From positions 9,581 through 73,580 of the forward strand of contig JAJDCA010000065.1 of assembly GCA_029261055.1 (NCBI GenBank): 64,000 bases of DNA, given 5' to 3'. The DNA comes from Candidatus Omnitrophota bacterium (GTDB taxonomy: Bacteria > Omnitrophota > Gorgyraeia > Zapsychrales > Zapsychraceae). The notes beneath the pieces are model-generated. The model ran no database searches, was not told where the DNA came from, and saw only the letters and a list, made by a program, of their open reading frames with translations. Shown one piece after another: positions 5,077 through 55,259 of this stretch (position 1 is the first letter of the stretch; every line of letters starts with the position of its first letter). The position numbers and the translations under genes are program-made.

Positions 5077-5093
5077 TCTGCATCCTTATTTCA

Positions 5094-5250
5094 AAGAAGT
5101 AGAGAGGTAAAGGTGCAAGAAGCAGAGAAAAATAAAAAAAAACTTCATACAAACTTCTACTTTCTTGCCTCTTACATCTCTACTTCTCTGCTTCTCTGCT
5201 TCTTACTTCTCTACCTCTTGCTTCTTACACCTCTGCCTCTTACTTCCCCA
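5094..5250. repeat. CT-rich degenerate octamer tandem-repeat element (copy A). A purine-rich head (AAGAAGTAGAGAGGTAAAGGTGCAAGAAGCAGAGAAAAA) and A-tract are followed by about 12 units of CTTCTCTG/CTTCTTAC
   Basis: Direct reading of the cusB-cusA intergenic region. The purine head is largely the reverse complement of repeat units, giving long hairpin potential. The same architecture recurs at 46745-46903 and partially at 7701-7733. Confidence 0.5.
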
Positions 5251-22168: not shown

Positions 22169-22275
22169 GAACTAATCTCCTAAATTTAGAATTTCCAGCC
22201 GTATAGGAAAGTATAAAACTTTCCTATCAGCACCAAAAATCGCCTCAAGTTATCGTTGTAGGCGATTTTCTTGCC

Positions 22276-22853: not shown

Positions 22854-23375
22854 TTATCTAGCATGAAATCCAATAGATCCTTTAGATTTCGTAGGTGGCT
22901 CTAGCAGGCGCTTGATCGCTTCGAAAACAATTTGGAATTGGTGATCATATTTTTTCTCCATCTTTTCAATCTTCTCACGCAAGTCGCGGTGCTCGATCAT
23001 CAGTTCACGGAGTTTTGCGAAGGTGCGCATGATTTGAATATTGACCTGAATAGCTCGCTTACTGTTGAGTACACTGGAAAGCATGAGAATACCATACTCT
23101 GTAAAGGCATAGGGTAATTTGCGTGGGCCTCCCCAACTTGAAGTGCCAAAATGGCACTTCAAGTTTGCAACCTCTTGTTGTGTAAGGGGTAATAAGAAAT
23201 CTACTGGAAACCGATCTTTATTACGGCGTACCTGTCGTGTTAAATGTTTTGTTTCCACACCATAAAGCTCTGCCAAATCTTTATCTAACATGACCTTCCT
23301 CCCACGAATCAACAAAATTTTGTTTTGGATGATTTCTTCGGGAACTATTTTGGTTATTATTTTCTTTGTTGTCAT
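22854..23375 (-). CDS. ORF6N-domain (KilA-N-related) protein, paralog A
   Basis: N-terminal LIRGRKVMLDKDLAELYGVETKHLTRQVRRNKDRFPVDF matches the ORF6N domain, with a C-terminal coiled coil. It contains a perfect 13+3+13 palindrome at 23136-23164. Confidence 0.7.
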   Translation of the reverse strand: MTTKKIITKIVPEEIIQNKILLIRGRKVMLDKDLAELYGVETKHLTRQVRRNKDRFPVDFLLPLTQQEVANLKCHFGTSSWGGPRKLPYAFTEYGILMLSSVLNSKRAIQVNIQIMRTFAKLRELMIEHRDLREKIEKMEKKYDHQFQIVFEAIKRLLEPPTKSKGSIGFHAR

Positions 23376-23408: not shown

Positions 23409-24968
23409 TCACCGCCCCCAGCTTCGATCCAGACTCCGATACTGTATCGCCTCGGCGATGTGGTCGGGTTGGATGCTTGATTGACCGTCCAAATCGGCAA
23501 TCGTGCGGGCGACTTTGAGGATTTTGTCGTGGGCACGGGCGGAAAGGGTGAGTTCATCAATAGCTCTCCTGAGCAAATCTTTGCCTTCATCAGTCAAGGC
23601 ACAATGTGTCCGAATTCTTTTTTGATTTAAATGGGCATTTGTAAATATTTTCTCTGGTGGTGCCAAAAGATTAATTTCGTCTTGAGATCTTTTTTGCTGA
23701 ACCTCACGCGCCGCAACAGTTCTCTTTTTGATAGCTGCCGAAGCCTCTCCTCTATTACCGACAGTCATTAATTCCACAGACTTCAGCGAAGGTACTTCTA
23801 AATGAATATCAATACGATCAAGCAAAGGGCCGGATATTTTGGACATATAGCGTTGAATTTGATTAGGATTGCAATGACACTCTTTCGCTGGATCTGAATA
23901 CCAACCACACGGACAAGGATTCATCGTCGCAATCAGCATAAAACGTGAAGGAAAACGAACGGTTTGGCTGGCACGAGAAATAGTTACCTGATGATCTTCT
24001 AAAGGCTGCCGTAAAGATTCCAATACATTGCGGCTAAACTCAGGCAATTCATCCAAAAACAAAATCCCATTATGCGCCAACGTCACTTCACCCGGCCGGG
24101 GCATTGACCCGCCGCCAACCAAAGCCACATCGGAACTTGTATGATGCGGTGAACGAAAAGGACGCTGATGAATAATCCCACGATTAGCCTGTACCAATCC
24201 CACCACTGAATGAATTTTAGTAGTTTCCAGAGCCTCATCGAGTATCATATCAGGCAATATCGTCAACATCCGTCTGGCAAGCATGGTCTTACCGCTTCCC
24301 GGAGGGCCTATCAAAAGAACATTGTGTCCTCCAGCCGCTGCAATTTCCAAACCCCGTTTAACATGCGCCTGCCCTTTAACCTCGGAAAAATCTGTATCGT
24401 AAAAATTAACCTTATTCCACAAAGATTCCATATTAACTTTAAAAGGCTCAATAATCGTAGGGTTTTGAAAAAAATACACGACTTCGTTGAGCGTCTTCGC
24501 CGGATAAACGGAAACATTCTTAGTCACAGCCGCCTCTGCAGCATTAGCCAATGGAAGAATCATTCCTTGAAATTGATCTGTTTCAAGAGACATGGTAATA
24601 GGCAAAACCCCTTTTATGGGTTGAATACGTCCATCTAAAGAAAGCTCACCCAATAGGACATAATTTTTCAAAGGCGTAATATCAATTTGTTCACTGGCTG
24701 CAAGAATCCCCAAAGCGATCGCTAAATCAAAAGAAGGCCCTTCCTTTTTAACATCCGCCGGAGAAAGGTTCACCGTAATCCGTCCCATTGGAAAATCGTA
24801 ACCACTATTCTTAATCGCCGAACGTACCCTCTCCTTACTTTCCCGCACCGCACTGTCTGGCAAACCTACAATATGCACACATGGCAATCCCCGCGACACA
24901 TGCACCTCAATAATAATCGGATAGGCATCCAATCCGGCAATACTATAACTACATACTTTGGCTAACAT
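23409..24968 (-). CDS. comM: YifB/ComM-family Mg-chelatase-like AAA+ ATPase
   Basis: 519 aa with an N-terminal Lon-like domain, Walker A GPPGSGKT, sensor motifs, a Cys cluster CPCGWYSD..CHC and a C-terminal Mg_chelatase_C region. Confidence 0.9.
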   Translation of the reverse strand: MLAKVCSYSIAGLDAYPIIIEVHVSRGLPCVHIVGLPDSAVRESKERVRSAIKNSGYDFPMGRITVNLSPADVKKEGPSFDLAIALGILAASEQIDITPLKNYVLLGELSLDGRIQPIKGVLPITMSLETDQFQGMILPLANAAEAAVTKNVSVYPAKTLNEVVYFFQNPTIIEPFKVNMESLWNKVNFYDTDFSEVKGQAHVKRGLEIAAAGGHNVLLIGPPGSGKTMLARRMLTILPDMILDEALETTKIHSVVGLVQANRGIIHQRPFRSPHHTSSDVALVGGGSMPRPGEVTLAHNGILFLDELPEFSRNVLESLRQPLEDHQVTISRASQTVRFPSRFMLIATMNPCPCGWYSDPAKECHCNPNQIQRYMSKISGPLLDRIDIHLEVPSLKSVELMTVGNRGEASAAIKKRTVAAREVQQKRSQDEINLLAPPEKIFTNAHLNQKRIRTHCALTDEGKDLLRRAIDELTLSARAHDKILKVARTIADLDGQSSIQPDHIAEAIQYRSLDRSWGR

Positions 24969-25522
24969 TATTTGCTCTCCTTTTTAGTCCTCGGGGGATG
25001 AAATCCAATAAGTTTCTTACGCTTTACCGGGGGATCGATTAAGCATTTGATTGCATCAAAAACTACTTTGAATTGATAATCATATTTTTCCTCCATCACT
25101 TCGATCTTTCGCTTCAAATCTTTATGAGTTACCATCAACTCTCTAAACTTTACGAATGTTTTCATGATTTGAATATTGACCTGAATAGCTCGCTTGCTAT
25201 TTAAAACACTTGAACGCATCAGGATGCCGTGTTCCGTGAAGGCAGATGGAAGTTTACGCGTACCTCCCCAACTTGAAGTCACAAATTGTGACTTCAAGTT
25301 TGAAACCTCTTCCCTTGTAAGAAGAAACATAAATTCGACTGGAAACCGACCCTGATTACGTTTTACAGCTTGATTAAGTACTTTTGTATCAACACCATAA
25401 AGTATTGCTAAATCTTTATCCAACATGACTTTCTGCCCTCTTATGAATAGAATCTTAATTTCTATCATGTCTTGAGCAACAACACTTGCAAAAGTATTTT
25501 TCTCTTTAACCATACAGATCAT
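24968..25522 (-). CDS. ORF6N-domain (KilA-N-related) protein, paralog B
   Basis: FIRGQKVMLDKDLAILYGVDTKVLNQAVKRNQGRFPVEF. It shares identical 30-nt blocks with paralog A at the DNA level and contains the equivalent palindrome at 25268-25296. Confidence 0.7.
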   Translation of the reverse strand: MICMVKEKNTFASVVAQDMIEIKILFIRGQKVMLDKDLAILYGVDTKVLNQAVKRNQGRFPVEFMFLLTREEVSNLKSQFVTSSWGGTRKLPSAFTEHGILMRSSVLNSKRAIQVNIQIMKTFVKFRELMVTHKDLKRKIEVMEEKYDYQFKVVFDAIKCLIDPPVKRKKLIGFHPPRTKKESK

Positions 25523-27293: not shown

Positions 27294-27381
27294 ACGTAAA
27301 TATCCCTTATTTTTAATAATACCTATTACTTCAAGTATAACATTTTATCTTCTTATTGAGTAGGGAGCGCAAAAACAAAAA

Positions 27382-27420
27382 AATAACGGCCACTTTATTT
27401 TAAAAAAAGTGGCCGTTATT
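27382..27420 (-). terminator. rho-independent terminator (12-bp stem AATAACGGCCAC / GTGGCCGTTATT) downstream of the repeat-protein gene
   Basis: A perfect 12-bp stem with a 15-nt loop. On the minus-strand transcript it is followed by a U-run (plus-strand AAAAACAAAAAAA at 27371-27381). It probably also insulates the kinase gene. Confidence 0.6.
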
Positions 27421-27454
27421 TCTTTACTGTATGTAGATCTACCCATCACCTAAT

Positions 27455-28291
27455 TTATTTATTTTTTCTCGCACGATGCTTCGCCTTCAACCCCTTCCGC
27501 TGGTGATTAACATTTTTACGTATTTGTTGCTTAGCCTCCCGCTGAGATGAACCAGGATTATTCGCCCGATATTTATCCGCGCCACTTTTAAACTTTTCTC
27601 GCTTTCCCTGACGATTATCTCGGCGATCTTGACGTTTTTCTTGACGATTTTCACGATTCTCGCTCCGATTTCCCTGACGATCATCTCGCCGATCTTGACG
27701 TCTTTCCTGACGACCTTCTCGATTTTCACTCCGATTTCCCTGACGATTATCTTGGCGATCTTGACGTCTTTCCTGACGGCCTTCTCGATTTTCACTCCGA
27801 TTCCCCTGACGATCATCTCGGCGATCTTGACGTCTTTCCTGACGACCTTCTCGATTTTCACTCCGATTCCCCTGACGATCATCTCGGCGATCTTGACGTC
27901 TTTCCTGACGGCCTTCTCGATTTTCACTCCGATTTCCCTGACGATCATCTCGACGATCTTGACGTCTTTCCTGACGGTCATCTCGATGTTCTTGCCTTTT
28001 TTCCTGACGGTCTTCCTTATTACCTTGTTTATGCTCTTTAGCCTCTTCTTTAAAACCTTTCATCTTTTCACGAATTTCTTCAGGGGACAACCCTTGATCT
28101 TTATACTCTTCAATGGATGATTTCCTTCTGGATTGAAAATCACTCCACCACTGCTTATTTTCTTCTTGTTCCTGATCTCTATACTCTCTAAATTCTGATC
28201 TCGAATCTACCTCACCCGTAGAATCTTCTTGCGCCCAAACAGCAGGTACTAATACGATACTTAGAAGTACTACTAGTGTTAGCTTATTCAT
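27455..28291 (-). CDS. secreted highly charged tandem-repeat protein (about five 22-aa REGRQERRQDRRDDRQGNRSEN units)
   Basis: Signal peptide MNKLTLVVLLSIVLVPAVWAQ, followed by an R/Q/D/E/N-rich low-complexity body. The repeats are encoded by a 66-bp tandem array. Confidence 0.6.
   Translation of the reverse strand: MNKLTLVVLLSIVLVPAVWAQEDSTGEVDSRSEFREYRDQEQEENKQWWSDFQSRRKSSIEEYKDQGLSPEEIREKMKGFKEEAKEHKQGNKEDRQEKRQEHRDDRQERRQDRRDDRQGNRSENREGRQERRQDRRDDRQGNRSENREGRQERRQDRRDDRQGNRSENREGRQERRQDRQDNRQGNRSENREGRQERRQDRRDDRQGNRSENRENRQEKRQDRRDNRQGKREKFKSGADKYRANNPGSSQREAKQQIRKNVNHQRKGLKAKHRARKNK
27597..27990. repeat. 66-bp tandem DNA repeat, about 6 copies, inside the repeat-protein CDS
   Basis: The unit start CTCGATTTTCAC recurs at 27717, 27783, 27849 and 27915 with an exact 66-bp period. 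It generates the spurious overlapping ORFs 27487..27981(-) and 27629..28120(+). Confidence 0.8.
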
Positions 28292-46744: not shown

Positions 46745-46903
46745 AAGAAGCAGAGGTGCAAGAGACAAGATGCAGAGAAAAAAACAAAAAATTAATTAAT
46801 TTTTTTACTTCTCTACCTCTTACTTCTCTGCTTCTTACCTCTCTACTTCTTGCCTCTCTGCATCTTGCATCTCTACTTCTTTACCCCCTACTTCCCCCTC
46901 TCC
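46745..46903. repeat. CT-rich degenerate octamer tandem-repeat element (copy C), overlapping the metW stop codon
   Basis: A purine head AAGAAGCAGAGGTGCAAGAGACAAGATGCAGAGAAAAAAA, then an A/T tract, then about 12 CTTCTCTAC/CTTCTTACC-type units. The architecture matches 5094-5250. Confidence 0.5.
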
Positions 46904-48598: not shown

Positions 48599-49627
48599 TT
48601 AAGCACTAAATTCAAACATCGCTTCAATACATTTTTTAGCTCTTTGAACGACTTCTTTATCAATAACAACCCGATCTCTCGGGGTAGGATTCGTTAAAAC
48701 ACGACGGATGTCTTCTAAGGTATTCGATTTCATGTAACGGCACAACGTACAGGTGCCCACCAAATGCTTGTCCGGAAATTCCTTCTGCAACCGTGCGGAC
48801 AAACCGCACTCGGTTAACATCAAAAATTGATGCGCATCCGTTGTTTCCATGTATTGTAACATCTGGGAAGTGCTGCCGACAAAATCCGATTGATCACAAA
48901 CTTCAGGTTTACATTCCGGATGGCTGACGACTTTGGCTTGAGGATATTCTGTACGAATCTTAAAAATTTGCTCCGTATCATATTCTTCATGCACGTAACA
49001 TTTCCCCTCAAAATAACGCACATCTTTGGCCACACCGCGTTTGGCCATTTCCTTAACAAGATTCTGCCCCATCAATTCATCCGGCAAAAAATAAATTTTA
49101 TCATTCGGAATTTTTTCGACAATGTCATACACATTAGCTGATGTCACACACACATCACACTCGGCTTTAACAGCTGCGGTGGTATTGATGTAACAGACAA
49201 AGGTGTACTCAGAAAATTCCTGCCGCAATGCACGAACACGTTCCGCGGTAATCGCATCGGCCAGACTACAACCGTCTTCTAAACCAGGAATCAGCACTTC
49301 TTTTTCAGGATTGAGTATCTGGGCTGTTTCTCCCATAAATCGAACCGCCGCAAAGACAATCGTATCGGCCGTGGTTTCCATCGCATTTTTACTTAAGCCG
49401 TAAGAGTCTCCAACATAATCACCTACACCATAAATAATTTCGGGGTTCACGTAAGAATGGACAAGAATAACCGCGTTCTTTTTTTCCTTAAGATCACGAA
49501 TTTCATTAATCAAAGGCGTCATTTCCTCACATTTGCGCAAGGAATACTGGCACACGCTCCCCGTGACCTTGATATTCTTCAAAGTTTCGTAAAGCTCTTC
49601 AGCTGTTGTGTGATTAGTTGTAATCAT
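48599..49627 (-). CDS. nadA: quinolinate synthase
   Basis: 342 aa with the NadA triple-repeat architecture and conserved Cys ligands. Confidence 0.85.
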   Translation of the reverse strand: MITTNHTTAEELYETLKNIKVTGSVCQYSLRKCEEMTPLINEIRDLKEKKNAVILVHSYVNPEIIYGVGDYVGDSYGLSKNAMETTADTIVFAAVRFMGETAQILNPEKEVLIPGLEDGCSLADAITAERVRALRQEFSEYTFVCYINTTAAVKAECDVCVTSANVYDIVEKIPNDKIYFLPDELMGQNLVKEMAKRGVAKDVRYFEGKCYVHEEYDTEQIFKIRTEYPQAKVVSHPECKPEVCDQSDFVGSTSQMLQYMETTDAHQFLMLTECGLSARLQKEFPDKHLVGTCTLCRYMKSNTLEDIRRVLTNPTPRDRVVIDKEVVQRAKKCIEAMFEFSA

Positions 49628-49681: not shown

Positions 49682-50038
49682 TTACACCTTACTAATAAAT
49701 AACAGCAGCCAACCAGCTAGAAAACTAAGACCACCAATGGGTGTAATCGGGCCAAAGATTTTCATCTGTGTTGTGGCCAAAAGATACAAAGATCCGGAAA
49801 AAAACACAATCCCTACCGTAAAACACCACCCTGCCATATTGATTTTCGGATCAACTCCTTGCGTGGCTAGCCAGGCAACCACAAACAAAGCTAAAGCATG
49901 AATAAAATGGTAAAAAATACCGGTTTGAAACACATCAAAATAATGCTCAGACAATTTTGACCGCAACATATGCGACCCAAATGCCCCCAAAGCCACCGCA
50001 CAAAACATCATCAAACTTCCCATTTTAATCCAAATCAT
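49682..50038 (-). CDS. DUF423 family small membrane protein
   Basis: 118 aa with 4 TM helices and the N-terminal AVALGAFGSHML motif. Confidence 0.7.
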   Translation of the reverse strand: MIWIKMGSLMMFCAVALGAFGSHMLRSKLSEHYFDVFQTGIFYHFIHALALFVVAWLATQGVDPKINMAGWCFTVGIVFFSGSLYLLATTQMKIFGPITPIGGLSFLAGWLLLFISKV

Positions 50039-50193
50039 TTTATTTTCCTCTTTCTAATTTTGTCTTATGTATTTTCACAACTTCTCTAAATTAGCGACAC
50101 GTGCATGTCAACCCGGCTATTGGAGATTCTGTTAAAGCCTTCCAGCTCAGAGGAGATCTCCTTCTGGTCGAGAAAGCATCCATGATCTATTTT

Positions 50194-50303
50194 AATAAAA
50201 ATTTTGCATGTTTAAGGTGAAGGGGTATCCTTGAATGGGAGGATCCACACTGGGCGGAGGGGCCCAGTCAAGGATACCCCTTCATCTATGCAAAATTTTT
50301 ATT
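50194..50303. repeat. GC-rich nested palindromic element: 16-bp core stem GAAGGGGTATCCTTGA / TCAAGGATACCCCTTC around an inner hairpin CTGGGC-GGAGGG-GCCCAG, flanked by an outer inverted repeat AAAATTTTGCAT / ATGCAAAATTTT
   Basis: Direct reading: core arms at 50219-50234 and 50268-50283, outer arms at 50194-50209 and 50288-50303. A further 10-bp palindrome GGAGATCTCC lies about 60 bp to the left (approximately 50141-50150). It sits between the miaB stop and the DUF423 start. Confidence 0.5.
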
Positions 50304-51635
50304 TCACTCGTAGAAATATTCCCCTTTTAACAAATGTGGGGTGGCCTCTTGTATTTTAACTTTCACAAAATCACCGCGGCCATACGCTCCGGCCGGTACG
50401 ATGACACGTTTATTCCCATCAGTCCGACCTTGAAATTTATCGGTCGACCGTGTTAACTCTGTTTCTTCAATCATGACATTGCAAACATCACCAATATGAG
50501 CTTCATTCCTTTTTAACGAAATATCTTTTTGCATATCAACGAGTTGGACAATGCGTGCCGTCTTTTTTTCCTCCGGTACATCATCCGGAAACTTACGTTC
50601 GGCAATCGTGCCTTTACGCTCAGAATATTTAAAAATAAACGCCGCATCAAATTCAACCGCCTGCATGACCTTTGCCGTATCTGAAAATTCTTCATCTGTT
50701 TCCGAAGAAAACCCTACAATAATGTCACTGGTCAACGCCATCTGAGGGTAATACCCGCGAATTTTATCCACCAAATCTAAAAATTCTTTTTGTGTGTAAA
50801 ACCGATCCATCAATTTCAGCATACGATCATTACCGGATTGTAATGGCAGATGAATGTGCTTACAAACCTTAGGATTATTCGCCATCACCTCGAGCAAATC
50901 ATCTGGAAAATCTTTCGGATTCGGCGACGTAAATCGAATACGTTCAATGCCGTTGACCTTGGAGGTAGCCTCTAATAACGCCGCAAAATCTCCACCTTCC
51001 CCCGAATACGAATTCACATTCTGCCCGAGAAACGTGACCTGCTTAAACCCTTCCCCAGCCAACCGCTTAACCTCTTCCACCACATTCGCCACCGACCGGC
51101 TACGTTCCCGTCCGCGCGTGTACGGCACCACACAAAACGTACAAAAATTATTACATCCCCGCATCACCGCCACCCACGCATTCACCCCTTGCACCCGCGA
51201 AGGATACACATCACTGTAAGTCTCAAACTCCGACAATGTCGTATCAAATGCTTTAGCCCCGATCCCAGCCGCCTCACGAATCAATCCAGGCAAACGCTTG
51301 TAACTATCCGGCCCCGCAATAAAATCAATCTTCAACGCCTTATCCTCAAGCAAATCCTTACGCAAATTCGTCGCCATACACCCCAGCACCCCAATCATCA
51401 ACGAATCACCATCCCCATTAGAACGCTGCTTGTATTTATGCCGAATCTTATGAATCCTCCCAAACACCTTCCGATGCGCATGCTCCCTGATCGCACAAGT
51501 ATTAAGAAGCACAATATCCGCCGCCGTCTCCTCCTGCACAAACACATACCCATCCTTCGTCAGAATCCCCCGCACGAGTTCCGAATCATATTCGTTCATT
51601 TGGCAACCATACGTTTCAAGAAAAATTTTCTTCAT
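50304..51635 (-). CDS. miaB: tRNA-i6A37 methylthiotransferase
   Basis: 443 aa with an N-terminal MTTase Cys triad (YGCQMN), radical SAM CNNFCTFC and a C-terminal TRAM domain. Confidence 0.9.
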   Translation of the reverse strand: MKKIFLETYGCQMNEYDSELVRGILTKDGYVFVQEETAADIVLLNTCAIREHAHRKVFGRIHKIRHKYKQRSNGDGDSLMIGVLGCMATNLRKDLLEDKALKIDFIAGPDSYKRLPGLIREAAGIGAKAFDTTLSEFETYSDVYPSRVQGVNAWVAVMRGCNNFCTFCVVPYTRGRERSRSVANVVEEVKRLAGEGFKQVTFLGQNVNSYSGEGGDFAALLEATSKVNGIERIRFTSPNPKDFPDDLLEVMANNPKVCKHIHLPLQSGNDRMLKLMDRFYTQKEFLDLVDKIRGYYPQMALTSDIIVGFSSETDEEFSDTAKVMQAVEFDAAFIFKYSERKGTIAERKFPDDVPEEKKTARIVQLVDMQKDISLKRNEAHIGDVCNVMIEETELTRSTDKFQGRTDGNKRVIVPAGAYGRGDFVKVKIQEATPHLLKGEYFYE

Positions 51636-51881
51636 TTGACCCCCAAAATTTTTCTTAAAACGTTACGAGGTGTTGCGATGCTTCTACGCAACACCGACAA
51701 AAACGCAACACCACCCATTTCAACAATTATTTTCTTCACATCTTTTCCCATACCTAATCCCCACTAATTTGATTCTTCTCTTTAAATTCTCTTTTAAAAT
51801 TTGCAAGGGAGGTGGCAATTTGCCTCCACCCTTTTAATAATTTATTTTTATTGTCCATCTTTAATTACCCCTATTTACACC

Positions 51882-52403
51882 CTACTCAACAACCCTCTTC
51901 AAATCCCCCAACCCCTCCTCAAACTGCGCCCCCACCATCTTGTCACAATCCATCACCAAACTCATCGCCTTCATCATAAAATTCTTTAAACCAAACATCG
52001 CCCATGTCACAACAGCTTGATTACCTTGAGGCTGAAACATAAATTCATAAGTACTAGTAGATTTAAACGGTTTTATCCAATCACTTTTGATCTGTATTAA
52101 TTCAGCGGGGCGGCTAACGACAATGCTGTTGCTTCCTTGCCCTATGTCTTTGTTTCCATTCCAACTGAAAATGGACCCTACTCCTTTGGGAGATCCTGCA
52201 TATTCGTATTGGGCATTTGGATCAAGCTTAACCCATGGCGACCATTTTTGCCAATGATGAAAATTATTAACTTGCTCAAATATTTTTTCCGCAGGAGCTG
52301 TGATGGCTAAACTACGCGTTACCCGCAGCTCATTTGACTGCACGTTAACATAAAAACCCAAGCTAATTAATACTACAAAAATGACCAACCCAATTTTTTT
52401 CAT
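51882..52403 (-). CDS. secreted SRPBCC-superfamily protein
   Basis: 173 aa with a signal peptide and an AHSA1/polyketide-cyclase-like fold signature (W..W motifs). Confidence 0.5.
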   Translation of the reverse strand: MKKIGLVIFVVLISLGFYVNVQSNELRVTRSLAITAPAEKIFEQVNNFHHWQKWSPWVKLDPNAQYEYAGSPKGVGSIFSWNGNKDIGQGSNSIVVSRPAELIQIKSDWIKPFKSTSTYEFMFQPQGNQAVVTWAMFGLKNFMMKAMSLVMDCDKMVGAQFEEGLGDLKRVVE

Positions 52404-52677
52404 CAGCGTATCCCTCTCCCTTATTAAAGCCTTTCCAATAATCCGTCAACTTATTACGGGTTTCCTGGCCCATCATGCGTTGCTGGATCCATTTTTTGCT
52501 TCTGCCCTGCTTCTGCCAATATTCACGAGAACGATTAAGAGCTTTTTCAGAATCAGTCATTTCCTGCATACGCTCGTATCCAACCTTTGCCAGCCACAAT
52601 TTAATAAATTCTGCTTTTGGGCTTGGAACGGATTGAATAATACGTAATAAAGTTTCAGGACTGGCGGCGCCTGTCAA
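52363..52677 (-). CDS. hypothetical protein (overlaps the SRPBCC start by 41 nt; may be a gene fragment)
   Basis: 104 aa ORF rich in W/K/R/Q (LWLAKVGYERMQEMTDSEKALNRSREYWQKQGRSKKWIQQR). I do not recognise the family with confidence. Confidence 0.3.
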   Translation of the reverse strand: MTGAASPETLLRIIQSVPSPKAEFIKLWLAKVGYERMQEMTDSEKALNRSREYWQKQGRSKKWIQQRMMGQETRNKLTDYWKGFNKGEGYADEKNWVGHFCSIN

Positions 52678-52745
52678 ATATCTCTTTCCATCAGCCGCCT
52701 ATTTTACGTCTTTACCTTTATTTGTCAAAAAATTAATATTTCCGT

Positions 52746-52829
52746 GCCAGCCCCTGGCTAATTAGAAGGGGTCAGATCCTGAATTATCATATTTTGATAG
52801 AAATATCATCTTTCAAGACCTGACCCCGC
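52746..52829. repeat. second member of the GC-rich palindromic element family (GAAGGGGTCAGATCCTGAA ... TTCAAGACCTGACCCCGC), preceded by the small hairpin GCCAGCCCCTGGC
   Basis: Direct reading: arms at 52765-52783 and 52812-52829, small hairpin at 52746-52758. The arm sequence is similar to the 50219-50234 core. It lies just downstream of cydB. Confidence 0.45.
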
Positions 52830-52877: not shown

Positions 52878-53912
52878 TCAATAACTATCTTTTGTAATCT
52901 GTACCTTCCCCCTAAAAATCCAATAAATTGCAATCGTGTAGGACAATACAAATGGAATACCAATAACGGCAATATTTAACATATAATTAAGTGATTTCAC
53001 CGATGAGGAAGCATTATAAATAGTCAAACTATATTCAGGATTAGGGGTGGATAGAACAAAGTTTGGGAAAATACCTCCACCAAAAATAAAAATTAACGTT
53101 ACCATCGCAACGCAAGATGATAAAAAAGCATTTAAACTTCGATTATGATAAATTTCGCGGGGAATATTAGCGATGGCAAGCATATTAATTAAGGGCACAA
53201 TAAACAAAATTGGAAATTGTCTGAGTTTGTCCGCCATATGCGGCAGATAAACCAATGTTGCCAACGTTGTCGTCGCATAACAAATAATAAAGAAAATAAT
53301 GCAATTATTAATCCAACCACGGGCTTTCTTGTGAAACTCCCCTTCTGTTTTTAAAAGAACATAAATTGAGCCGTGCATCATAAAAAGCGCCACTGTAGTT
53401 AGTCCTACAAGCAACGCATAGGGATTGAAGAGATTCCAGAATCCGCCCATATATTCTTTATCTGCGCCAAGAGGTATACCCCAAATAATATTCCCAAGAG
53501 CAACACCTAAAACAAAACTTGCGAGTATACTGGAAAGACTAAAAGCGATATCCCAAGATTGACGCCAACGTGGATTTTCTACTTTGCTTCTAAATTCAAT
53601 AGCGACAGCCCGAAAAATTAACGATAACAAAAGTAACATGACCGCTAAATAAAATCCGGATGTAAGTGTGGCATACACATCAGGAAATGCTGCAAACAGG
53701 GCTCCGCCTCCAGTAACCAACCATACTTCATTCCCATCCCACACAGGACCGATGGAATTAATCATGATTCGTCGTTCTTTATCTGTCTTGGTTAACAAGT
53801 GCAAGGCGCCAACGCCCAAGTCAAATCCATCCAGAATGGCGTACCCACTAAATAAAAGACCAAGCAGAACAAACCAAATAAGATTTAAATCTAAATGTGT
53901 AAAATCAAACAT
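52878..53912 (-). CDS. cydB: cytochrome bd ubiquinol oxidase subunit II
   Basis: 344 aa. N-terminus MFDFTHLDLNLIWFVLLGLLFSGYAILDGFDLGVGAL is typical of CydB. Confidence 0.9.
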   Translation of the reverse strand: MFDFTHLDLNLIWFVLLGLLFSGYAILDGFDLGVGALHLLTKTDKERRIMINSIGPVWDGNEVWLVTGGGALFAAFPDVYATLTSGFYLAVMLLLLSLIFRAVAIEFRSKVENPRWRQSWDIAFSLSSILASFVLGVALGNIIWGIPLGADKEYMGGFWNLFNPYALLVGLTTVALFMMHGSIYVLLKTEGEFHKKARGWINNCIIFFIICYATTTLATLVYLPHMADKLRQFPILFIVPLINMLAIANIPREIYHNRSLNAFLSSCVAMVTLIFIFGGGIFPNFVLSTPNPEYSLTIYNASSSVKSLNYMLNIAVIGIPFVLSYTIAIYWIFRGKVQITKDSY

Positions 53913-53915
53913 AAT

Positions 53916-55259
53916 TTAAGCTATCTGTCCTTTGGGTAAATCAGTTGTATCTTCTGGACCAATTTTTATTTTCCGGTTAAGTAAGAAAATAAATAATACA
54001 AAAAGCAGCGTATACACAATTGTAAACATAATTAAACTAGTCACAACCATATTGGCTGTTACCGCTTTAGACAACCCCTGAGATGTTCTTAACAGTCCAT
54101 ACACAATCCAGGGTTGACGCCCCACTTCAGTTGTTATCCAACCAATTTGATTGGCTATCTGCGGGCCTAACACCGAACCTACAAATCCCCACAACAACCA
54201 GCGTGTTGTAAACAACTTTCCTTTAAACAAATAAATAACACCCATAATATTTAATGCAATTAATAACATACCAATCAAAACCATTAAATGAAATGATTGA
54301 AAAACAATTTGTACAGGAGGTCTGTCTTCTTTTTTAAATTCGTTTAACCCCGTCACAGGCGTTTGGAAATCATTATGGACAAGAAAACTTAACATATTCG
54401 GTAACTTGATACCCTTAACGGTTTCATTTTCCTCATCAACCCATCCGAATAAATATAAATCGGCAGGTGCGGTTTCATAATGCCCTTCCATCGCCGCTAG
54501 CTTAGCTGGCTGATACTCACCTGCAAGCTTTGCACTACTATGACCGGAAATAAGCTGCGCAATGGAAGCAAAAATAGCTAAACCTAAAGCGATCTTCATG
54601 GAAGCTTTAGCAAATTCTTGATGGCGATTACGCAATAGATAATACGCACTGACACTTAAAACCAAAGTAGCTCCAGCCTGCCAACAACCAAGAATGACGT
54701 GAACAAGCCGATCCATGCTGGACGGGTTAAATACCATGGCCCAAAAATCTACAATTTCAGCTCGCGCTTCCATTCCTTCTCCAACAATATGATAACCTGC
54801 TGGTGTCTGCATCCAACTTCCAGCAACAGTAATCCACACCGATGAAAAATGCGCGCCTAGACAAACCATCATGGCTGAAAAGAAATGCACCCATGGTTTA
54901 ACTTTATTCCAGCCAAATAATAAAATGGCTAAAAAACCAGATTCTAGAAAAAAGGCAAAAATTCCTTCGGCGGCCAATGCACTACCAAAAATATCCCCCA
55001 CATATCTGGAGTATGTAGCCCAATTCGTTCCAAATTCAAATTCCATGACAATACCCGTCGCTACCCCAATCGCAAATGTCAATCCAAAAATCTTAACCCA
55101 AAAACGCGTCATATTATGATAAAGAGGATTCTTAGTCTTTAGGTACATTCCCTCCATAATTACCAAAAGAAGTCCGAGTCCAATAGAAAGTGGAGGGTAA
55201 ATGTAATGAAAAGCAATTGTTACAGCGAATTGTATTCTTGAGAGTAATAATACATCCAT
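53916..55259 (-). CDS. cydA: cytochrome bd ubiquinol oxidase subunit I
   Basis: 447 aa with conserved haem-ligand His/Met positions and a Q-loop region, colinear with CydA. Confidence 0.9.
   Translation of the reverse strand: MDVLLLSRIQFAVTIAFHYIYPPLSIGLGLLLVIMEGMYLKTKNPLYHNMTRFWVKIFGLTFAIGVATGIVMEFEFGTNWATYSRYVGDIFGSALAAEGIFAFFLESGFLAILLFGWNKVKPWVHFFSAMMVCLGAHFSSVWITVAGSWMQTPAGYHIVGEGMEARAEIVDFWAMVFNPSSMDRLVHVILGCWQAGATLVLSVSAYYLLRNRHQEFAKASMKIALGLAIFASIAQLISGHSSAKLAGEYQPAKLAAMEGHYETAPADLYLFGWVDEENETVKGIKLPNMLSFLVHNDFQTPVTGLNEFKKEDRPPVQIVFQSFHLMVLIGMLLIALNIMGVIYLFKGKLFTTRWLLWGFVGSVLGPQIANQIGWITTEVGRQPWIVYGLLRTSQGLSKAVTANMVVTSLIMFTIVYTLLFVLFIFLLNRKIKIGPEDTTDLPKGQIA

Follow-up and report, generated by a model that had tools for sequence, protein, structure and literature searches.

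The intergenic region 3' of miaB in the 64-kb stretch of DNA analyzed here (hereafter, the window) harbors a 110-bp nested palindrome (positions 50194-50303) that is genuine and far beyond chance. We tentatively interpret this element, with a probability of roughly 0.45, as an orphan palindrome of DNA-level origin that probably functions as the miaB terminator or as a barrier at the miaB 3' end. An inverted-repeat search resolves two tiers, an outer and an inner stem. The first-pass annotation had placed a nested palindrome between miaB and the DUF423 gene, and a check of the sequence finds every string it quoted where it was said to be; the palindrome is larger than described there, with inner arms of 25 nt, and the outer inverted repeat, given as 12 bp, is in fact 16 bp long and perfect. 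The features of this region are as follows.

48599-49627, minus strand: nadA, after the DUF423 gene
49682-50038, minus strand: DUF423 gene, the next gene downstream of miaB (Pfam)
50039-50193, minus strand: remaining spacer, 155 nt, not significantly structured (z -0.34)
50194-50209: outer left arm, AATAAAAATTTTGCAT, 16 nt, 100% complementary to the outer right arm
50210-50214: one-sided 5-nt bulge, GTTTA, separating the outer stem from the inner one (folds and sequence)
50215-50239: inner left arm, AGGTGAAGGGGTATCCTTGAATGGG, 25 nt, 92% complementary to the inner right arm (23 of 25 paired)
50240-50262: apical part, asymmetric, 23 nt (sequence and folds)
50263-50287: inner right arm, CCCAGTCAAGGATACCCCTTCATCT (inverted-repeat search)
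50288-50303: outer right arm, ATGCAAAATTTTTATT, abutting the miaB stop codon TGA (50306-50304, minus strand)
50304-51635, minus strand: miaB, 443 aa, with UPF0004, Radical_SAM and TRAM domains (Pfam)
52878-55259, minus strand: cytochrome bd subunits

The palindrome starts one base past the miaB stop codon, upstream of DUF423-nadA, and forms Watson-Crick pairs at 39 of the 41 positions of its stem. Both exceptions fall in the inner arms (50217 G/50285 T and 50235 A/50267 G), the left of which contains a perfect 17-nt core, TGAAGGGGTATCCTTGA. The core GAAGGGGTATCCTTGA is found at 50219-50234 on the plus strand and at 50268-50283 on the minus strand, which are its sole exact matches in the window. 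The apical part contains GGATCC (50241-50246) and CTGGGC (50250-50255), the latter of which can pair alternatively with GCCCAG (50262-50267). TA dinucleotides are present at 50196-50197 and 50300-50301, on either side of the 12-bp repeat AAAATTTTGCAT, and there are no direct repeats outside of 50194-50303. When read as minus-strand RNA, the left outer arm becomes the 3' strand of the outer stem, AUGCAAAAUUUUUAUU, the last 8 nt of which (50201-50194) constitute the U-rich tract UUUUUAUU; the order is thus UGA-AAUAAAAAUUUUGCAU-(G+C-rich hairpin)-AUGCAAAAUUUUUAUU-AAAAUAG, and the 3' strand of the hairpin finishes AUGCAAAA-UUUUUAUU. The element had been called GC-rich, which is true of its inner 73 bp (G+C of 0.575) and not of the whole (0.43 vs. 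0.40 for the window), with the outer arms having a G+C content of 0.125.

RNA folding of the palindrome gives -59.5 kcal/mol (z -10.0) on the minus strand and -62.2 kcal/mol (z -8.6) on the plus strand, and folding as DNA gives -39.2 (z -10.5), with 0 of 200 shuffled sequences folding as well as the palindrome. In a sliding fold of all 120-nt segments on both strands of the 64 kb, the palindrome ranks first, with the runner-up at -46.2. The mean 120-nt fold over the window is -23.4 for the G+U-rich minus strand vs. -17.9 for the plus strand. We favor a DNA-level origin because 39 of 41 stem positions are Watson-Crick pairs and because the two strands of the palindrome fold about equally, unlike the window, in which the minus strand folds better. 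A near-perfect Watson-Crick duplex on both strands would be the signature of a palindrome that originated in DNA, rather than of an RNA shaped by selection.

Nearly all genes from ~19.3 kb to 64 kb, and all genes near the palindrome, are encoded on the minus strand; transcription through miaB therefore includes the palindrome as its 3' end. The C terminus of MiaB is of normal length relative to 40 homologues and stops five residues past the conserved LKG motif, and the element therefore lies outside of conserved coding sequence; the same normal length rules out a miaB truncated by insertion. Among 7,726 MiaB homologues, the highest identity is 70%, with named matches from Caldithrix, Calditrichia and Omnitrophota MAGs, and MiaB is no more than 70% identical to anything among 5.8 billion proteins; the exact MiaB and DUF423 proteins are confined to two Logan contigs from run SRR15505515. 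The ~58 ORFs of the window encode housekeeping functions, toxin-antitoxin pairs and phage-type anti-repressor (ORF6N) paralogues, and a Pfam search finds no transposase, integrase, Y1 (RAYT) or recombinase among them. The paralogous ORF6N/anti-repressor-like genes (22854-23375 and 24968-25522) are 2,135 bp apart and flank a Mg-chelatase/ComM-like gene, and inside each lies one perfect palindrome of 14-15 bp (23135-23165 and 25270-25300, respectively), the two sharing the half-site AACTTGAAGT.

The palindrome occupies part of a miaB-DUF423 spacer that totals 265 nt. The remaining 155 nt (50039-50193) do contain the 10-bp palindrome GGAGATCTCC (50152-50161) that had been reported alongside the element, although this part of the spacer is not significantly structured. 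A TTGACA hexamer (50111-50106, minus strand) is accompanied by a weak -10 hexamer, a Shine-Dalgarno-like AGAGGA precedes the DUF423 ATG, and a promoter scan returns only a weak 9/12 promoter-like site at 50066-50037. On these signals, the 155-nt segment is a possible promoter region. Searches by tblastn with the proteins encoded downstream of miaB in relatives revealed no gene relics in the spacer. Several small ORFs of 22-42 aa are present on both strands; the sole one on the minus strand (30 aa) has no Shine-Dalgarno sequence, and none was accepted as a gene. At its other end, the miaB start is bracketed by a 19-nt inverted repeat (51611-51663, 95% complementary), ACGTTTCAAGAAAAATTTT / AAAATTTTTCTTAAAACGT, which on the minus strand places a Shine-Dalgarno-like GGGGG and the AUG inside a 15-nt loop. 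A AAAAATTTT motif is common to this repeat and to the outer arms of the palindrome (blastn, 17 nt, 94%); miaB thus bears a palindrome at each end, which may be coincidence.

We propose that the palindrome is a terminator because it shares the layout of other terminators of this genome and closes with UUUUUAUU. There is precedent in the literature for palindromic repeats at gene 3' ends that resemble terminators and probably function as such (SPRITE, PMC3049150; MITEs, reviewed in PMC10969869). The lineage clearly uses intrinsic termination, judging from textbook layouts at 27377-27425, an A-tract/stem/U-tract terminator with a 23-bp stem and a 9-nt loop followed by a U run, and at 22169-22275, which contains two A-tract/stem/U-tract hairpins. 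Adjacent genes likewise each have a hairpin on their 3' side, the SRPBCC-type gene in the spacer 51636-51881 and cydB at 52766-52828. The palindrome resembles the genome's own terminator at 27377-27425 in its A-tract/stem/U-tract order and in its position after a stop codon among co-oriented genes, but differs in scale, with 41 paired positions in two tiers and a 23-nt apex, where the genomic terminators have a stem of ≤23 bp and a 9-nt loop. Both the apical part and the stem length are far outside of canonical terminator dimensions, and a scan for consensus terminators does not call the palindrome. The G+C-rich tier is separated from the U tract by 16 nt, and in the minimum-energy fold the U tract pairs with the upstream A tract. 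The first-pass annotation had remarked that this is more structure than a simple terminator needs, and we concur, since the near-perfect stem extends over 41 bp; the origin of the palindrome is therefore probably a DNA-level event, and any function may be a by-product of an origin that was selfish or accidental.

We infer termination, RNA protection and the origin of the palindrome alike, and the scheme can be outlined as follows. The palindrome would have arisen or persisted at the DNA level, by a MITE-like insertion, a local inverted duplication or template switching. As miaB is transcribed, the nascent minus-strand RNA would fold into a two-tier hairpin, with a lower A/U-rich stem of 16 bp and an upper G+C-rich stem in which 23 of 25 positions are paired, so as to present the A-tract/stem/U-tract layout of an intrinsic terminator with an oversized stem. 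This hairpin would stop most transcription past miaB. Those RNAs that read through would carry a long duplex predicted to block 3'-to-5' exonucleases and to be a substrate of RNase III, for which the duplex is long enough. miaB would in this way be uncoupled from DUF423-nadA, which would use a promoter of their own in the 155-nt spacer, where the match to consensus is only weak. The palindrome is probably where the miaB transcription unit ends on its 3' side.

A second hairpin, at 52746-52829, had been put forward as a related element. It is a genuine hairpin, with a 16-bp stem that includes two G-U pairs on the minus strand (52766-52828), located after cydB, and in the scan of 120-nt segments it folds to -42.7 (minus strand) vs. 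-33.1 (plus strand); its similarity to the palindrome, on the other hand, is at the level of chance. The palindrome arm and this hairpin share a gapped 15-nt stem match with a Smith-Waterman score of 11, which is below the mean best chance score of 12.1 obtained with shuffled windows (n = 100), and the arm attains a better score, 14, inside an unrelated gene. Neither blastn nor MAFFT aligns the two elements, and a gapped motif that matches both was devised post hoc. We therefore regard 52746-52829 as unsupported as a second copy of the palindrome. The AAGGGG...CCCCTT ends common to the two hairpins also occur in a predicted hairpin in the spacer 51636-51881, and seem to reflect how this genome's terminator stems are usually composed. 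The 52766-52828 hairpin adjoins a 48-nt segment (within 52718-52828) that recurs, ~96% identical, ~16 kb away (positions 295-342 of the neighboring Logan contig L055), where it comprises the last 11 codons of an SNase-homologue gene and 20 nt downstream. The copy in the window is a relic that is closed by an upstream stop codon, and the neighboring ORF (52363-52677) matches only positions 80-172 of the 274 positions of phage family phrog_15286; the spacer between cydB and the SRPBCC-type gene is therefore a patchwork of remnants of genes.

We searched for further copies of the palindrome. Within the same genome, the search covered 78 kb, comprising the 64-kb window, in which exact and 3-mismatch core searches and word-7 blastn return no second copy, and ~14 kb of additional flank, in which a walk along neighboring Logan contigs returns none; no IS was found in these 78 kb. 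Among public collections, the 16-/17-nt arm core matches 4 loci in IMG/VR, 19 in GTDB (185,579 species genomes) and 26 in JGI metagenomes. Each of these loci matches a single arm over ≤~23 nt, none of the three collections contains a two-arm match, and we regard these single-arm matches as chance on the basis of their length and form. The terminal-repeat 20-mer has no match in IMG/VR. Sensitive blastn returns no match in phages and one 29-nt match in plasmids (E 0.03), which covers the outer right arm along with the miaB end and which we take to be chance. Concatenated six-frame peptides of the palindrome have no match among 5.8 billion proteins; there is therefore no ORF miscalled over a similar element elsewhere. 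We find no evidence for a repeat family, and the palindrome is solitary in all data searched; a lack of further genomic copies is among the outcomes that the first-pass annotation had named as counting against its own reading.

REPs are single stems of ~20-40 nt with a conserved 5' tetranucleotide that occur in hundreds of copies and are linked to RAYTs, and REP/BIME elements act as 3'-exonuclease barriers and weak terminators. The palindrome had been described as REP-like, which is apt for its form, a nested extragenic palindrome after a stop codon, and not for its repetition, which is not found in the data searched. Like the REP/BIME elements of enterobacteria and pseudomonads (overview in PMC3184786), it is an extragenic G+C-rich palindrome just 3' of a gene; unlike them, it is 110 bp long and two-tiered rather than a short single stem and is present in a single copy, with no Y1 transposase (RAYT) in the window. 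MITEs are <500 bp in length with terminal inverted repeats of ~4-30 bp, and their families can comprise as few as 1-22 copies per genome (PMC10969869). The palindrome, at 110 bp with perfect 16-bp terminal repeats, is within this size range, but the further copies expected of a MITE are found neither in the window nor in the flank or public collections, and the window contains no cognate IS. It shares with the Correia/NEMIS, RUP and ERIC MITEs (PMC10969869, PMC3184786) a length of ~100-150 bp, terminal repeats, stable stem-loop transcripts, A/T-rich insertion sites, an intergenic location and possibly a TA duplication, whereas those elements occur in many dispersed copies, usually with a cognate IS, as opposed to the one copy and no IS in 78 kb here. 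The closest published analogue is the SPRITE of Streptococcus pneumoniae, a repeated palindrome that ends in AAAA/TTTT and forms a duplex of 18 bp with a U-rich tract; it is enriched at gene 3' ends and has been proposed to be co-opted as a terminator (PMC3049150). SPRITEs are defined by an HMM, are A/T-rich over their whole length (G+C content of ~28%) and are found in ~30 copies per genome in pneumococcus and S. mitis only (PMC3049150). The palindrome is not a member of this family: both are extragenic palindromes near gene 3' ends with A/T termini and a duplex longer than that of ordinary terminators followed by a U-rich tract, but the palindrome has an inner stem of 57.5% G+C, two tiers and one copy in the data searched, and comes from an unrelated uncultivated lineage, such that no relationship in sequence would be expected.

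With regard to its origin, the palindrome may be one copy of a low-copy MITE- or REP-like mobile family with other copies, and the transposase, encoded elsewhere in the genome, and with an effect on miaB that is incidental; this explanation, which concerns origin and is partly compatible with a terminator, is one that we take seriously yet consider doubtful. The length of 110 bp, the perfect 16-bp terminal repeat, the A/T-rich ends and the stable hairpin fit the published description, and since MITE families may number 1-22 copies per genome, one copy in 78 kb is not decisive (PMC10969869). Arms this close to perfect Watson-Crick symmetry suggest that the DNA-level event was recent, and the window does hold another, two-copy family of intergenic elements. 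A TA on either side of AAAATTTTGCAT is what an IS630/mariner-type insertion predicts, and the TA flanks could be a target-site duplication, in which case the empty site would read ...GAGTGAAATATTAAAATAG...; these flanks, however, lie inside of the palindrome and are self-complementary, and are thus not independent evidence. Also against mobility are the lack of a second copy in the window or the 14-kb flank, the candidate at 52746-52829 being at chance level, the lack of any two-arm match in IMG/VR, GTDB or JGI, the chance-level plasmid match and the lack of phage matches, the lack of proteins matching any frame of the palindrome, and the lack of a transposase, integrase or Y1 (RAYT) gene among the ~58 ORFs. 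This solitary state, with no associated mobile gene, and a near-perfect complementarity that has no G-U bias toward the transcribed strand are instead what would be seen if a neutral palindrome had been born in place by inverted duplication or template switch, and was tolerated without function owing to its short length and 23-nt spacer. We judge this unlikely, given clean boundaries located exactly at the stop codon, and an A/T-rich base, G+C-rich middle and U tract that mimic the genome's terminators, which are unexpected for a random duplication. A composite is also conceivable, in which the palindrome is the founding copy of an undescribed MITE/REP-like family in a poorly sampled lineage, co-opted as an oversized terminator and with a short apical loop that flips in the population, as a break of the Logan assembly at a single k-mer would permit, but we hold this to be quite improbable.

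Other explanations assign the palindrome to a DNA site, to the assembly or to an RNA gene. The Logan assembly of SRR15505515 breaks at the apex, with contig L001 ending at 50237 and contig L054 beginning at 50265; the two overlap by 29 nt, which consist of GGG, the loop and CCC, and the stretch between the two arm mismatches, the 31-mer TGGG-loop-CCCA, stands as a separate node of the graph. We take the Logan k to be 31, in agreement with the computed 30-nt overlap between contigs L055 and L001. A separate node is expected if some reads join the loop to the arms in the opposite orientation, and is equally compatible with flip-flop inversion and with fold-back artefacts. This break and the separate node, along with the DNA fold (z -10.5), are consistent with a DNA-level site, i.e., a cruciform, a protein-binding site or a flip-flop element with an inverting 23-bp loop; nevertheless, fold-back or strand-switch artefacts in the library produce an identical pattern in the graph, a loop of 23 bp falls short of what recombinase-mediated inversion requires, there is no recombinase gene nearby, and the loop has no promoter or coding feature to switch, all of which make such a site very improbable. 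An invertible promoter switch (inverton) in particular is rejected, with 23 bp between the arms vs. roughly 100-500 bp and no recombinase found. That palindromes are typical of chimeras, and that an independent assembly breaks inside this one, could point to a fold-back artefact of the assembly itself, which is scarcely credible, since the genes on either side (miaB on one, DUF423-nadA on the other) are unique, collinear and intact, contigs L001 and L054 together reproduce arms and loop with 100% identity while overlapping at the apex, and the arms are distinguished by two mismatched positions and a bulge of 5 nt, unlike a fold-back copy. The recovery of both arms at 100% identity between unique genes therefore excludes an assembly chimera, and the palindrome itself explains why short-read assemblies break at this site. 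As for a structured ncRNA, no part of the window scores at the gathering threshold of any Rfam family, and the flanking loci L055 and L056 give no matches; a permissive scan of the locus returns eukaryotic models only, namely five miRNA precursors and two snoRNAs, all of them sub-threshold, of which the best, MIR847 (38 bits vs. a threshold of 184), fits any long hairpin. In the four closest retrievable relatives, miaB is followed by different genes after spacers of -4 to 41 nt, and a comparable hairpin is absent from all four. A cis-regulatory RNA or sRNA, e.g., a leader or riboswitch for DUF423-nadA, would be in keeping with the location of the palindrome upstream of these genes in the 265-nt spacer and with the high stability of the hairpin, but in addition to the negative Rfam scan, which in permissive form includes no match to the NAD+ (nadA-motif) riboswitch, and the lack of a counterpart 3' of miaB in the nearest relatives (comparing the regions downstream of miaB), the duplex is continuous and nearly free of mismatches, with no internal loops resembling a ligand pocket, forms Watson-Crick pairs on both strands, is followed by an unstructured spacer and has no homologues from which to obtain covariation. 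We accordingly find no evidence for a structured ncRNA gene, and give very little credence to a regulatory RNA. Among specific candidates, 6S RNA and the NAD+ riboswitch are ruled out by the lack of a covariance-model match, and a retron ncRNA by the absence of a reverse transcriptase. Integron attC sites are imperfect palindromes with R''/L''...L'/R' boxes (RYYYAAC...GTTRRRY) that lie beside cassettes or an integron integrase; the arms have no GTTRRRY/RYYYAAC pair and the window no integrase.

As a DNA-level orphan that probably terminates or protects the miaB transcript, the palindrome is ordinary in kind and matters little beyond annotation, but for the observation that an uncultivated lineage carries very long extragenic hairpins. 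Should many copies be present in a complete genome, an under-sampled phylum would have yielded one more MITE family that resembles terminators, as SPRITE does; such a family would be useful for repeat annotation and conceptually familiar.

The window contains further repeats. The two-copy family is a different intergenic element, found at 5092-5245, in an RND efflux operon, where it separates the HlyD-like gene from the AcrB gene, and at 46745-46885, directly upstream of a 4-oxalocrotonate-tautomerase gene. On the minus strand, each consists of ~75 nt of purine-rich 7-8-nt units (GTAAGAG, GCAGAGAA, GTAGAGAA...), followed by an A/T-rich loop with a T run and then by a pyrimidine-rich complement. 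Neither copy has an Rfam match at gathering score; they fold to -53.7 and -55.9 kcal/mol, respectively, and align with 75% identity over 173 nt. Finally, an ORF without a Pfam match (27455-28291) contains, at 27534-28061, ~7 tandem copies of a 66-nt repeat that has a sub-period of 33 nt; the copies are 61-92% identical to the reference copy.
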